A DNA stretch of 64,000 nucleotides from Chthonomonadales bacterium. Lineage in GTDB: Bacteria > Armatimonadota > Chthonomonadetes > Chthonomonadales > CAJBBX01. Location: the NCBI GenBank assembly GCA_037443035.1, contig JBBIPC010000006.1, positions 519-64,518 of the forward strand, read 5' to 3'. A model generated the notes under the pieces. It saw nothing but the letters and a program-made list of their open reading frames with translations, was not told the DNA's origin and did no database searches. This document shows, piece after piece, positions 30,470 through 59,793 of the stretch (the first letter of the stretch is position 1; each line of letters starts with the position of its first letter). Position numbers and translations under genes: made by a program.

Positions 30470-31501
30470 TTACCCCAACGCTGCGCGCTGTAACCGGTCG
30501 CGGACAGCCTCCCACTCGACAGTGTCAGGCGGCTCTTCCACGACGATGTACCGGACACCACGCCTGTCGAGATCCGCTAGGGCCCGGTACAGCTCCCTTC
30601 CGTAAGCGCGGGCATCCCGCGGCATCGTTACAACAATCATGTCGTACGACGGACCCGCCACACTCCCGAAGGTCAGCAAAGCGCAACGATGGCCATTGGC
30701 CGCTAGGTCACGTGTTACAGAGAAGGCATCCGCATGGGCTGGTACGAGCACCACCTGTGCCGATGGTGCATAGTGGCGTCCCAGGACCCCTGGACTGCGG
30801 GGCACTGCCGAACCCGTACCGGTACCGACAGCGATAGCGGGACCGAGCACGCGTGCCAGATCTTCGCGAGACAGAAGTCCTGGTCGGAGGATACTCGGCG
30901 GATCCACGGTGAGGTCCAGTACTGTCGACTCGATGCCGCCGTGGCACGGACCCGCGTCAAGTATCCAGTCTGCAGCCTGCTCGATGGGCTCCGCCAGGAA
31001 TTCCACGCGCGTTGGCGACACGTAGCCACTGGGATTGGCGCTGGGCGCCGCCACAGGCACGCCCGCATGCCGAATGAGATCCAGCGCCGTACGATGGTTC
31101 GGACACCTGAGAGCGACTGTCGGCCCTCCTGCGGTGACGACGTCAGGCACACGGTCGTTCCGCGCGAGGACCATGCTCAGCGGGCCAGGCCAGAACGCCT
31201 CGGCAAGCACCTGCGCTACATTCGGCCAGACGGCCGCGAGCTCTCTCGCAGACTGTACGTCCGCTACATGGACGATGAGCGGATTGTGTGGAGGCCTCCC
31301 CTTGGCACGAAAGATGGAGGCGACTGCGGCAGCATCCAGCGCATTGGCCCCTAGGCCGTACACTGTCTCGGTCGGAAACACGACCAGTCCGCCATCCCGG
31401 AGACACTTGGCGACCTCCAGAATGCGCGTTCCGTCGCTGTCTTCGTGTTCACGCCAGATTCGTGCGGGGGACATGTGGCTCACTTGGTATGGAACCGCCA
31501 A
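30470..31501 (-). CDS. tsaC: L-threonylcarbamoyladenylate synthase (Sua5/YwlC long form)
   Basis: 343 aa. YrdC-domain motif VVFPTETVYGLGANALD plus the C-terminal Sua5 domain. Confidence 0.9.
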   Translation of the reverse strand: MAVPYQVSHMSPARIWREHEDSDGTRILEVAKCLRDGGLVVFPTETVYGLGANALDAAAVASIFRAKGRPPHNPLIVHVADVQSARELAAVWPNVAQVLAEAFWPGPLSMVLARNDRVPDVVTAGGPTVALRCPNHRTALDLIRHAGVPVAAPSANPSGYVSPTRVEFLAEPIEQAADWILDAGPCHGGIESTVLDLTVDPPSILRPGLLSREDLARVLGPAIAVGTGTGSAVPRSPGVLGRHYAPSAQVVLVPAHADAFSVTRDLAANGHRCALLTFGSVAGPSYDMIVVTMPRDARAYGRELYRALADLDRRGVRYIVVEEPPDTVEWEAVRDRLQRAALG

Positions 31502-31650
31502 TCTGAGCTAGCTGCCACGCGGTGGCCTGCAGGGCAGCAGTGCGGCTCGCACCGATAGCTTACCGCATGCGCACTGTGCACGCCGCCGCCACGAACGATC
31601 TGTCCGACTTCCAGCGCCTGTGAGGTGCTACGACACCTCGCGCGGTGCCA

Positions 31651-31680
31651 TTGACACGGCTTCCGGCCGGGCAGTATAAT
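31651..31680 (+). promoter_or_regulatory. near-consensus sigma-70 promoter
   Basis: TTGACA (31651-31656), 18-nt spacer, TATAAT (31675-31680). Same architecture as the tRNA promoter at 59679-59708. Confidence 0.7.
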
Positions 31681-31686
31681 CGATCA

Positions 31687-31913
31687 AGCTATGGTAGGAG
31701 TACGAACGAGTAATCATTGCCTGAGTAAGGTACGAGCGTATGTCGGGCGGACGGATGCAGTAGTCCTGGCCTGCGCCGGCATGGCGGTGGCAGGTGCACG
31801 CAAGCTCAGAATGCTGGCGGATAGCTTCGAGCACGTGCATCTTCAACCTGACGCCTGGCCTGACTACGTTTGAACCCGCTCCGCCGTTTGGTGTGAGCGG
31901 GTTCTATGTTTTT
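31687..31913 (+). ncRNA. candidate structured RNA or cis-regulatory leader, class unknown
   Basis: Bounded by the consensus promoter and a strong intrinsic terminator. Three nested long-range helices: 31733-31740/31865-31872, 31742-31749/31852-31859 and 31753-31759/31836-31842. Two internal hairpins: 31770-31778/31785-31794 and 31799-31805/31813-31819. No family assignment was possible by eye. Confidence 0.4.
31872..31913 (+). terminator. intrinsic terminator
   Basis: Perfect 10-bp stem: GAACCCGCTC (31872-31881) with GAGCGGGTTC (31895-31904). Extendable into the loop. Followed by TATGTTTTT. Confidence 0.8.
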
Positions 31914-31957
31914 CGGTTCCACGCAGCAAGCCTGATGCGGAAGGCAAAGAGCAGAGC

Positions 31958-32482
31958 ATGGATCAAGAAGTCCTTGTGCTGAACAGCGACTATGAACCGC
32001 TCAACGTGTGCAACACGAGGCGGGCGATCGTGCTGGTCATCTTGGGGAAGGCAGATGTATTGCACGCGCGCGATCGCATGATGACCCACATGAGCGGTAC
32101 GTTCGCAGCGCCTTCCGTAGTCAAGCTGCGCCACCACGTGCGCCGGCCGCTGCCTGAGCTGAAGCTCTCCCGTCGGACCGTTTTCGCTAGAGATAACTAC
32201 ACGTGCCAGTATTGCGGTTTGCAGACGCGTGAACTGACCATAGACCATGTCGTGCCGAGAAGGCTTGGAGGTCGGACGGCATGGGAGAACGTCGTGGCAG
32301 CGTGCCGCAAGTGCAACACGAGGAAGAGCGACAAACCGCTCGATCAGAGTGGTCTTCGGCTACGCAGGCAGCCGACACGGCCACACTATGTGCCGTACAT
32401 CAGTCTTACGAAGTACCTCGCAGCGCGAAAGAACGCCGAATGGCGCGACTACCTGCCTCAGTTCGCCGACTTCCCTGACTGA
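31958..32482 (+). CDS. HNH endonuclease (small, stand-alone)
   Basis: 174 aa. Motifs YTCQYCG, DHVVPRRLGG and NVVAACRKCNTRK (CxxC...H...CxxC HNH zinc-finger core). Confidence 0.85.
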   Translation: MDQEVLVLNSDYEPLNVCNTRRAIVLVILGKADVLHARDRMMTHMSGTFAAPSVVKLRHHVRRPLPELKLSRRTVFARDNYTCQYCGLQTRELTIDHVVPRRLGGRTAWENVVAACRKCNTRKSDKPLDQSGLRLRRQPTRPHYVPYISLTKYLAARKNAEWRDYLPQFADFPD

Positions 32483-32545
32483 GCACGCCCTGCTGCGTAC
32501 GCCAATGATCCTCCTCGACGCACCTACAGTGCTGCATTCTCACGC

Positions 32546-33916
32546 ATGGCTTCCAGGAACGGCGACATGACCTACGCCGAGGCCGTTCGATTCATGTCCC
32601 ACCTTCGGCGCTTTGGCATGAAGCTCGGCAATGATCGCATGGTGGAACTCCTGCGGCGTGTCGGCAATCCGCACCACGCCTACGGCATTGCCCACGTTAC
32701 GGGGACGAAAGGCAAGGGGTCCACCACCGCCATGATTGCCGCCATCCTCCACGCACACGGATTCCGTGTGGGAGGGTACTACTCGCCGTACGTCTACGAT
32801 CTATGCGAGCGGGTCCAACTGAACGGGCAGAACATCGCACGTCGCGATTTCGCTAGGTTCGTTGCTCGCCTCGCGCCACACGTGGAGGAGATCAGCGCTG
32901 GTCCGCTCGGGTCGGTGACGGAGTTCGAGCTGAAGACTGCCTTGGGGTTCCTGTACTTCGCCGAGAAGCAAGTGGACTACGCTGTCGTGGAGGTCGGCAT
33001 CGGTGGTCGGCTCGACGCGACCAATGTCGTTCATCCGCTAGTCAGTGTCATCACGAACGTCGGCCTGGATCATACCGACATTCTCGGTGATACCATTGCT
33101 GCGATTGCGTTCCAGAAGGCCGGGATCATCAAGCCAGGAGTACCAGTGATTACGGCAGCAGAAGATCCTGAGGCGTTGCAGGTCATCGAGAGAACGGCAG
33201 CGGAGCAGACCGCAGAGGTAGTGCGAGTTGTGAGGCAGGATGCATGGAATAGCCCTGCACAAGTTACCTGGGCGGGCGACCACACGTGCTTCGACGTCAG
33301 AACACCCGACGCGACCTACGATGGCCTCGCTCTGCAACTGATCGGCAGCTACCAGTGTGTGAACGCCGCCTGCGCCATCGCGGCAGTGGAGGCTATGGCG
33401 GATCGTGGCGGCTTCGATGTTCATCCGGACGCAGTGCGGCTAGCGCTGAGCAAGGTGAGTCTGCCGGGGCGCTTCGCCGTGCTACGGGAACGACCGATGG
33501 TGGTTGCCGACGGTGCGCACAACGGTCTTGCGGCACGCGCCCTGGCTGAGGAACTGCGGCGGATGCGTTACGGACGGCTGGTCCTCGTGGTGGGGATGTT
33601 ACGAGGTCATGAGCCAGATGCCTTCTTGAGAGAGCTGGCTCCTCTCGCGTCCATCGTGTACGCGACGCAGCCAAGTTGGCGTCGCGCGCTAGATGCTGGG
33701 AACGTCGCCGAATCGGCCAGACAGTACTGTGCCGATGTCCGCGTGGATTTCCCGCCGCGACAGGCTGCGAGGAAGGCCATCGCCGAGGCGGACGAAGAGG
33801 ACCTGGTGTTGATCACAGGCTCCTTCTACACGGTGGGGGATGTGCCACCGCAATCGCTGAGCAGAGCTAGGTGTCGGACTTCTGCACGTGCTCCAGCTCG
33901 AGAGCGACTACGGTAG
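32546..33916 (+). CDS. folC: bifunctional folylpolyglutamate synthase / dihydrofolate synthase
   Basis: 456 aa. Mur-ligase P-loop HVTGTKGKGST. The start may instead be MTYAEAV at 32567. Confidence 0.9.
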   Translation: MASRNGDMTYAEAVRFMSHLRRFGMKLGNDRMVELLRRVGNPHHAYGIAHVTGTKGKGSTTAMIAAILHAHGFRVGGYYSPYVYDLCERVQLNGQNIARRDFARFVARLAPHVEEISAGPLGSVTEFELKTALGFLYFAEKQVDYAVVEVGIGGRLDATNVVHPLVSVITNVGLDHTDILGDTIAAIAFQKAGIIKPGVPVITAAEDPEALQVIERTAAEQTAEVVRVVRQDAWNSPAQVTWAGDHTCFDVRTPDATYDGLALQLIGSYQCVNAACAIAAVEAMADRGGFDVHPDAVRLALSKVSLPGRFAVLRERPMVVADGAHNGLAARALAEELRRMRYGRLVLVVGMLRGHEPDAFLRELAPLASIVYATQPSWRRALDAGNVAESARQYCADVRVDFPPRQAARKAIAEADEEDLVLITGSFYTVGDVPPQSLSRARCRTSARAPARERLR

Positions 33917-59678: not shown

Positions 59679-59708
59679 TTGACACTGGCGTAAGCGTATG
59701 CGTATAAT
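59679..59708 (+). promoter_or_regulatory. consensus sigma-70 promoter for the tRNA gene
   Basis: TTGACA (59679-59684), 18-nt spacer, TATAAT (59703-59708). The tRNA 5' end lies 10 nt downstream. Confidence 0.7.
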
Positions 59709-59717
59709 AGGATGCTC

Positions 59718-59793
59718 GGCGGGATAGCTCAGTGGTTAGAGCGAACGGCTCATAATCGTTAGGTCGAGGGTTCGAATCCCTCTCCCGCTACCA
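59718..59793 (+). tRNA. tRNA with CAT anticodon (elongator Met or lysidine-modified Ile2), CCA encoded
   Basis: Full cloverleaf drawn by hand. Acceptor stem 59718-59724/59783-59789, D stem GCTC/GAGC, anticodon loop CTCATAA, T arm GAGGG-TTCGAAT-CCCTC, discriminator A, then CCA. Confidence 0.9.

Follow-up and report, generated by a model that had tools for sequence, protein, structure and literature searches.

A conserved small open reading frame probably accounts for a promoter-to-terminator unit upstream of an IshB-like nuclease gene in Armatimonadota

Introduction

In pyrBI attenuation of Escherichia coli, the leader open reading frame (ORF) runs up to or through the terminator, where a ribosome that follows closely blocks the hairpin, and an antiterminator is not needed; uridine triphosphate (UTP) is sensed through pausing of RNA polymerase at U-tracts. 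In mycobacteria, leaderless polycysteine small ORFs (sORFs) serve as attenuators (Canestrari et al., bioRxiv 10.1101/834739). These are the closest known systems to the locus described here, a promoter-to-terminator unit at 31651..31913 in a 64-kb stretch of DNA (referred to below as the window) from a Chthonomonadales bacterium of the phylum Armatimonadota (contig JBBIPC010000006.1). The unit lies directly upstream of a gene for an HNH nuclease, and a sequence-only reading of the window had interpreted it as a structured RNA or attenuator. Our analysis indicates that it is probably a coding gene, whose product would be a small protein or leader peptide, and not a structured non-coding RNA; the label 'attenuator' may still apply.

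With the mycobacterial sORFs the unit shares an unannotated short ORF that is placed at or next to the transcription start and forms the first cistron before the regulated genes, the enrichment of one amino acid in many members, and a ribosome position that is proposed to govern downstream expression. It differs from them in having an intrinsic terminator that the stop codon overlaps, a non-repetitive peptide core (LR.L.D.F.H.H) and a nuclease gene downstream. As in pyrBI, the leader ORF reaches or crosses the terminator, and control would be coupled to translation without an antiterminator. Unlike pyrBI, there is no evident pause signal or ligand logic, and the sequence of the peptide is itself conserved.

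The closest RNA analogues are the HEARO or omega RNAs (PMC9581776, PMC9640706), which resemble the unit in that about 200-300 nucleotides (nt) of RNA-producing sequence lie directly upstream of an ORF with PLMP and HNH domains. Omega RNAs, which carry a guide segment on a non-coding scaffold of several helices, belong to IS200/605 elements and match Rfam, whereas the unit encodes a peptide, has no conserved scaffold and no Rfam match, and occupies a stable chromosomal locus; on these features it falls outside their class. As for the downstream protein, IshB is described in accounts of Altae-Tran et al. (2021) given in PMC10734217 and PMC11610941 as a protein of approximately 180 amino acids with PLMP and HNH domains.

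Results

The window has a gap of 456 base pairs (bp), as had been claimed, between sua5 (start at 31501, minus strand) and the HNH gene (start at 31958). Within this gap, the structured-RNA reading overlooked a conserved coding ORF at 31691..31873 (+) that bears a signature of selection at the amino acid level. This ORF, which is among those listed for the window and has orthologous ORFs in relatives, consists of 60 codons and a UGA stop, and encodes the peptide MVGVRTSNHCLSKVRAYVGRTDAVVLACAGMAVAGARKLRMLADSFEHVHLQPDAWPDYV. Its AUG (31691) is positioned 10 nt downstream of the -10 box of a sigma-70-type consensus promoter (TTGACA-18 nt-TATAAT, 31651..31680, +). The transcription start would lie at about 31686-31688, and the messenger RNA (mRNA) should be leaderless or have a leader of 3-5 nt. 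Codon alignments delimit a conserved core, KLRMLADSFEHVH, at residues 38-50 (31802..31840, +). The family motif of this core is LR.[LR].[DA].[FLY].H.H, and the shared form LR.L.D.F.H.H is represented in the window peptide by RKLRMLADSFEHVH, a C-proximal segment that is the sole strongly constrained part of the 60 residues.

The promoter was found exactly where the earlier reading had put it and matches the consensus at 12/12 positions. Perfect sites of this type occur twice in the window as compared to none in 100 shuffles, and the site is therefore beyond chance. The only other one (59679-59708) precedes a transfer RNA (tRNA) gene at 59718-59790 (+), which scored 73 bits and has the anticodon loop CUCAUAA, giving the anticodon CAU. 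Since the sole other perfect promoter in the window drives a tRNA, a likeness that had been pointed out earlier, the promoter of the small ORF would be of stable-RNA strength. Scanning of 30500-33000 for sigma-70-like promoters revealed none besides 31651-31680, and so none closer to the HNH start, in agreement with the earlier statement that there is no other.

Scans with the HNH protein provided 80 genome loci and 80 metagenome loci, and closer relatives were collected through the HNH homologues P0004, P0005, P0007 and P0008. Because an nhmmer search of the 80 HNH loci with 31641-31920 found only the near-identical L001 (Logan contig SRR12999147_25078, a 97%-identical strain carrying the same HNH protein), homology was sought by position and translation. 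In approximately 27 Armatimonadota loci, a unit was present in the same orientation as, and directly upstream of, the orthologous HNH gene in otherwise unrelated neighbourhoods, and nearly all of these loci showed the order TTGACA..TAtAAT promoter, 150-370 nt, GC-rich hairpin, U-rich tail and HNH gene. In nearly every Armatimonadota locus that was examined, a promoter of this type occupies the same relative position, although the flanking sequence is unalignable. The ORFs found in these gaps have 28-89 codons; they open at the predicted transcription start or shortly downstream of it and end at the hairpin. In about half of the loci (the window, L001, L162, L164, L166, L167, L003, L005, L006, L011, L012, L087 and the L015 group) the -10 box is followed after 7-12 nt by the AUG, a spacing at which the mRNA would be leaderless; other lineages have leaders of 16-206 nt. 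Conservation of this layout upstream of HNH orthologues supports the earlier proposal of a discrete promoter-to-terminator transcription unit. In the Chloroflexota and Melainabacteria, a nearby promoter was all that the HNH orthologues had; the unit and the small ORF were absent. Two Chloroflexota loci (L019 and L027) share a hairpin-like segment (GACCAGCCGAGTCCCGGCTGGCTTCAGGGAG / GATCGGCCGAGTCCCGGCTGACCTCAGGGAG) about 40 nt upstream of the HNH start, which overlaps the likely ribosome-binding site.

The core of the peptide reads KLRMLADSFEHVH in both the window and L166, KLRMLADSFEHMH in L162, MLRMLADSFEHVH in L164, RIRLLADSFEHVH in L167, KLRMHADSFRHQH in L082, RLRMLPDSFSHLH in L084, GDALRHRHAVYHAH in L012, GDCLRHRHALYHAH in L088 and HALQHRHAVHHAH in L003. 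We performed Nei-Gojobori counts over seven sequences, taking 13 codons as the core. In the core, the proportion of synonymous differences (pS) was 0.76, which is saturated, and that of nonsynonymous differences (pN) was 0.15, a ratio of 0.20; pN/pS was 0.81 in the N-terminal part of the peptide and 0.73 in its tail. Codons turn over at residues that are kept (Arg AGA/CGG/CGC, Ser AGC/TCG, Leu CTC/CTA/TTG and His CAC/CAT), and in the codon alignments the third positions of the Asp, Phe and Ala codons of the core vary too. Eight of the nine variable sites in codons 1-27 of the L015 group are synonymous third positions. When nine frame pairings were compared, the small-ORF frame was the best in 81 of 231 locus pairs as against approximately 26 expected by chance, and in related pairs it scored about twice as high as the next frame. 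Six-frame translations of 719 kb of loci contained 13 matches to D[SAC][FL].H.H, 12 of which were cores of small ORFs, the remaining one being a second copy adjoining the sORF in L001; there were none elsewhere.

This second, degenerate copy of the core, TDSLPHAH (GATAGCTTACCGCATGCGCAC), is located at 31554-31574 (+) in the window and at 2597 in L001, about 100 nt upstream of the promoter, and has no in-frame start codon. Given that the motif has no background match in the 719 kb of six-frame translations, the copy appears to be what remains of a duplicated small ORF.

Could the ORF be spurious, with its conservation arising from DNA or RNA elements or from the opposite strand, either as a minus-strand ORF at 31628-31846 or as part of a Sua5 lengthened at its N-terminus? 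In GC-rich DNA, chance alone often produces ORFs of 60 codons, constraint is weak over most of the peptide, and in L001 the gene caller extended sua5 across the region to 456 amino acids. However, the minus frame has a stop at 31628-31630 in the window and a TAG within the core in L164, and the variable third positions of the plus strand are the first positions of the minus strand, a pattern that identifies the minus-strand ORF as an antisense artefact. The unit is also kept where the upstream gene is not sua5, and the close spacing of AUG and -10 box in about half of the loci has no place in such an explanation, which we consider hardly credible. In L001 (1513-2883, minus strand) a T-to-G change removes the antisense stop, and the caller fused the ORF to sua5, giving 456 amino acids as compared to about 343. 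GC-rich antisense frames probably misled the gene caller into this fusion, and, the antisense ORF being an artefact, the 456-residue Sua5 is therefore an over-extension.

Upstream of the HNH gene, loci of the Fimbriimonadia type have another kind of small ORF, whose conserved core is W..T[AI]IR (codons ACG/ACC, ATA and CGT/CGC), at approximately 1454-1639 in L013, 1464-1640 in L014 and 2773-2988 in L076, and upstream of 257 in L089. A third core, RW.TGSWF, is common to L011 and the L015 group. Small ORFs may therefore accompany this nuclease throughout the phylum, with cores that are specific to each lineage.

The small peptides had no significant match in Pfam, NCBIfam or PADLOC, and the window peptide alone found zero homologues in an index of 5.8 billion proteins. 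A family profile built from 19 peptides and searched against 5.8 billion proteins had two unnamed matches only (P0001 and P0002). Searching 1.84 billion representatives with the window peptide (phmmer) yielded two multi-stretch matches, namely P0124, which is visibly a tandem-repeat protein, and P0123, with 28 matched stretches in 3016 amino acids, judged by stretch count only. In L167, the gene caller picked another frame over the small ORF. A single-sequence AlphaFold model of the peptide, a single long helix at residues 2-47 with a predicted local distance difference test score (pLDDT) of 75, was uninformative. Histidine makes up 5-29% of the family peptides, and the window peptide has only three. 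We conclude that these peptides constitute a new, effectively unannotated family of small proteins or leader peptides.

The unit ends in a GC-rich terminator hairpin (GAACCCGCTC-13 nt loop-GAGCGGGTTC, 31872..31904, +) followed by an interrupted U-rich tail, TATGTTTTT (31905..31913, +). The 10-bp stem (31872-31881/31895-31904) and tail had been described correctly and are beyond chance, and the hairpin is the sole helix of the unit with compensatory changes in relatives. Because its U-rich tail is interrupted, the terminator of the window is probably leaky. The U-tract is degenerate in the closest relatives as well (L001 TATGTTCTAG, L167 TTCATGGAGC), and strong (TTTTTTGTT) in other lineages.

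The UGA stop of the small ORF (31871-31873) runs into this hairpin, its GA being the first two bases of the stem. Terminator calls were reliable at 26 of the 27 loci, that at L085 being unreliable, and in 22 of these 26 the stop lies in or against the stem. It begins exactly 1 nt before the stem, that is, in a phase-locked manner, in 11/27 loci (e.g. UGAACCCGCUC). At nine further loci it starts on the first stem base or within the hairpin, and at another two it ends 2-4 nt short of the stem. The ORF continues through the hairpin in L082, L011 and the L015 group. In the last of these (L015 2817-3002, with equivalents in L093, L094 and L096) the stop overlaps the HNH start (ATGGCTGA; tATGGCTGA), which suggests translational coupling of the sORF and the HNH gene in that group. 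At loci with a reliable call, the hairpin is separated from the AUG of the HNH gene by 20-128 nt.

In about 22 of 27 loci across the phylum, the stem retains the form RCCCGCUY/RAGCGGGY (31874-31881/31895-31902 in the window), with loops of 4-34 nt, and it persists in the window subgroup despite the degenerate U-tract (L167 has none). The hairpin could have a role beyond termination. We did not establish any special significance for the CCCGC...GCGGG stem, with similar palindromes occurring elsewhere in the loci at about 0.2 per kb.

We then assessed the RNA fold, since the unit had been read as a structured non-coding RNA or riboswitch-like leader whose fold would depend on a ligand and, in competition with the terminator, regulate both the HNH gene and folC. 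All the elements described earlier, namely three long-range helices, the complementarity of AAGCTAT to ATAGCTT and the repeated CCTGGCCTG, were present exactly as stated when checked by hand, base by base. By our estimate, however, a 7-nt complementarity and a 9-nt repeat are of sizes expected by chance in 228 nt, and the CCTGGCCTG repeat is disrupted in the 97%-identical strain L001. The minimum free energy of the whole unit is -101.7 kcal/mol (z = -3.76). On removal of the terminator (31686-31870), z was only -1.81 and 8/200 shuffles folded equally well, indicating that most of the fold z-score of the unit comes from the terminator and that the remaining fold is unexceptional.

An alignment of the window with L082, L084, L092 and L002 showed that helices 1-3 were paired at about 50% with the window itself counted, as compared to 34-46% in slid controls and 84% for the terminator. 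RNAalifold, applied to six close relatives, recovered the terminator alone, with compensatory GC/AU exchanges at the base of the stem (covariation term -0.05). In the drawn helices, two G-U pairs of the window become G-C in L001 (both in helix 2), one becomes a wobble, and two pairs are broken. Therefore, the regions upstream of HNH orthologues conserve the layout of the unit but not helices 1-3, which neither covary nor persist. The mutual exclusion of fold and terminator that had been envisaged amounts to an overlap of just 1-3 nt. A cmscan search of 31480-32000 with 4227 Rfam models, which should include HEARO, returned zero matches even at E<=10, and Rfam models found only tRNA over the whole window.

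A riboswitch-like leader would be consistent with helices that can be drawn in the window, with the z-score of the whole unit, with the conserved position upstream of the HNH gene, and with the change of two helix-2 pairs from G-U to G-C in L001. Pairing of these helices in relatives is nevertheless at background, the substitutions track codons and not pairs, and linkage to folC is not conserved. The pattern of substitution in the unit is codon-periodic and synonymous-biased, unlike that of a non-coding RNA of the riboswitch type. This coding signature has already largely refuted the riboswitch-like leader, which we regard as very unlikely.

The gene downstream of the unit (31958..32482, +) encodes a 174-amino-acid HNH protein with a putative N-terminal PLMP-like domain and an IshB-like architecture, and was always found directly downstream of the sORF. 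The protein matched Pfam HNH and HNH_5, its HNH segment matched the NCBIfam IscB model with an E-value of 4.5e-18, below the cut-off of the model, and its best sequence match in the PDB was TbaIscB. In an AlphaFold2 model (pLDDT 89.9), the N-terminus forms a strand-strand-helix-strand-strand arrangement at residues 4-57, in agreement with the PLMP domain as described for IsrB (PMC9581776). Foldseek retrieved HNH domains and also DtIsrB (8dmb_P), which is without an HNH domain, over 65 columns (probability 0.99, E 0.07), and BLASTP against the PLMP seed of DtIsrB aligned in register with an E-value of 0.025. No match was obtained on searching residues 1-70 against the PDB using phmmer, and the motif itself reads PLNV, not PLMP. 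An HNH domain of the IscB/Cas9 type is present, RuvC is absent, and no further domain is found in the 174 residues. As judged from sequence and model, the predicted architecture equals that described for IshB, with the same domain content (PLMP-like N-terminus, IscB/Cas9-type HNH, no RuvC) and the same size. IshB differs in having been named as an insertion-sequence protein, and the protein described here appears to be vertically inherited beside housekeeping genes.

Apparent vertical inheritance of the HNH protein extends over Armatimonadota, Chloroflexota and Melainabacteria. Its gene is followed by folC in the closest relatives only; in other lineages the neighbours are genes for an H+-pyrophosphatase, a response regulator, an aminotransferase, an HtrA-like protease and a major facilitator superfamily transporter. 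As the neighbours vary, the conserved module consists of the sORF and the HNH gene, and the connection to folate that had been drawn through folC is incidental and was rejected. A defence-island or toxin-antitoxin context was not supported either, since PADLOC gave generic HNH matches only and the orthologues in other phyla lack the sORF.

The domains of this protein raise the possibility that the unit is an omega-RNA/HEARO-like guide RNA partner of an IscB-family PLMP-HNH protein. Omega RNAs lie immediately 5' of iscB and isrB, with the PLMP domain contacting a terminal hairpin and the Shine-Dalgarno sequence (PMC9581776), and here the CCCGCU/AGCGGG stem retains its sequence throughout the phylum, including loci with a weak U-tract, upstream of a protein with IscB-type PLMP-like and HNH domains. 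Yet no Rfam family was matched, and the region is under selection as a protein, with no conserved multi-helix scaffold. The locus is single and apparently vertically inherited amid housekeeping genes that differ by lineage, and neither transposon ends nor TnpA, as would accompany a mobile IS200/605 element, were seen, although transposon ends were not explicitly searched for. Further, the Chloroflexota and Melainabacteria orthologues are without the unit, and CCCGC...GCGGG hairpins are found elsewhere at the frequency given above. These observations make a guide RNA a highly improbable interpretation.

The coding unit has the layout of an attenuator, in that a short ORF lies upstream of the nuclease gene in the same orientation, with an intrinsic terminator, and no promoter, between the two. 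With a strong promoter and a hairpin, most transcripts would end at the hairpin and yield an abundant short mRNA for the peptide. Because no separate promoter is recognisable for the nuclease gene, the protein would be made only from read-through transcripts. This makes the read-through proposed in the sequence-only reading plausible for the HNH gene. Judged on geometry, the spacing of stop and hairpin would allow the position of the ribosome to influence the terminator. A ribosome terminating at the stop would cover the 5' arm of the hairpin, and read-through would therefore be tied to translation of the small ORF, rising when translation keeps pace with RNA polymerase and falling when it lags. 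We infer from this arrangement that read-through into the HNH gene may be coupled to translation.

A related scheme is the classical amino-acid-sensing attenuator, in which ribosomes stall at the His codons of a leader peptide and thereby set termination at the hairpin. The order of leader ORF, terminator and gene is that of such attenuators, mycobacteria have leaderless sORF attenuators rich in Cys (bioRxiv 10.1101/834739), and His codons are enriched in the family, with runs such as HLHYLHHVHHHH (L004) and HLHHMHQHVHHH (L084). The three histidines of the window peptide, however, occur as H.H and form no run, and the non-His residues LR.L.D.F are conserved equally strongly. An antiterminator alternative was not found, and the downstream genes are not histidine genes. 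Moreover, upstream stalling in this geometry would raise termination, which is the opposite of what happens in biosynthetic attenuators. Sensing of histidine in this way thus appears improbable.

One role that we tentatively consider for the conserved peptide is that of a dedicated partner or sensor of the IshB-type PLMP-HNH nuclease, acting in trans or in cis. In trans, it could be a small His/Cys protein that binds metal or loads it onto the nuclease, or that binds or restrains the nuclease. In cis, the nascent chain could act as a sensor or arrest peptide that holds the ribosome on the stop within the stem and gates expression of the nuclease. The distance from the H.H motif to the stop is exactly 10 codons in the window and in 4/5 distinct close relatives, a spacing with which the core would sit in the exit tunnel of the ribosome during termination.

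Discussion

The reading of this unit as a small gene whose translation is coupled to expression of the nuclease must be set against several observations. The subfamilies with the W..T[AI]IR and RW.TGSWF cores are too distant to be aligned with that of the window. Outside the core the peptide is near-neutral, and between the window and the 97%-identical L001 there are eight replacement and three synonymous changes. The small ORF was uncalled by gene finders and has only the two unnamed matches, which leaves it without independent annotation. No alternative antiterminator pairing was found, and none is conserved in the RNAalifold consensus fold; stop codons also overlap terminators at ordinary gene ends, and the coupling may therefore be passive. 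Finally, the ends of the transcript, its translation and read-through are all deduced from DNA.

The locus illustrates how a strong promoter and a terminator around a GC-rich, foldable stretch can mimic a structured RNA and yet be a missed gene for a small protein, here one of a family that neither gene finders nor protein databases carry. The IshB-like nuclease downstream is a poorly understood relative of IscB and Cas9, from a branch without a known function or cofactor. The small ORF is the first conserved genetic partner for a chromosomal nuclease of this PLMP-HNH type, and provides a handle on the function of these proteins. The phase-locked overlap of stop and terminator across the phylum offers a clean natural test case for translation-coupled intrinsic termination, and the interest of the family would be greater if the peptide indeed serves the IshB-type nuclease as a functional partner or sensor.

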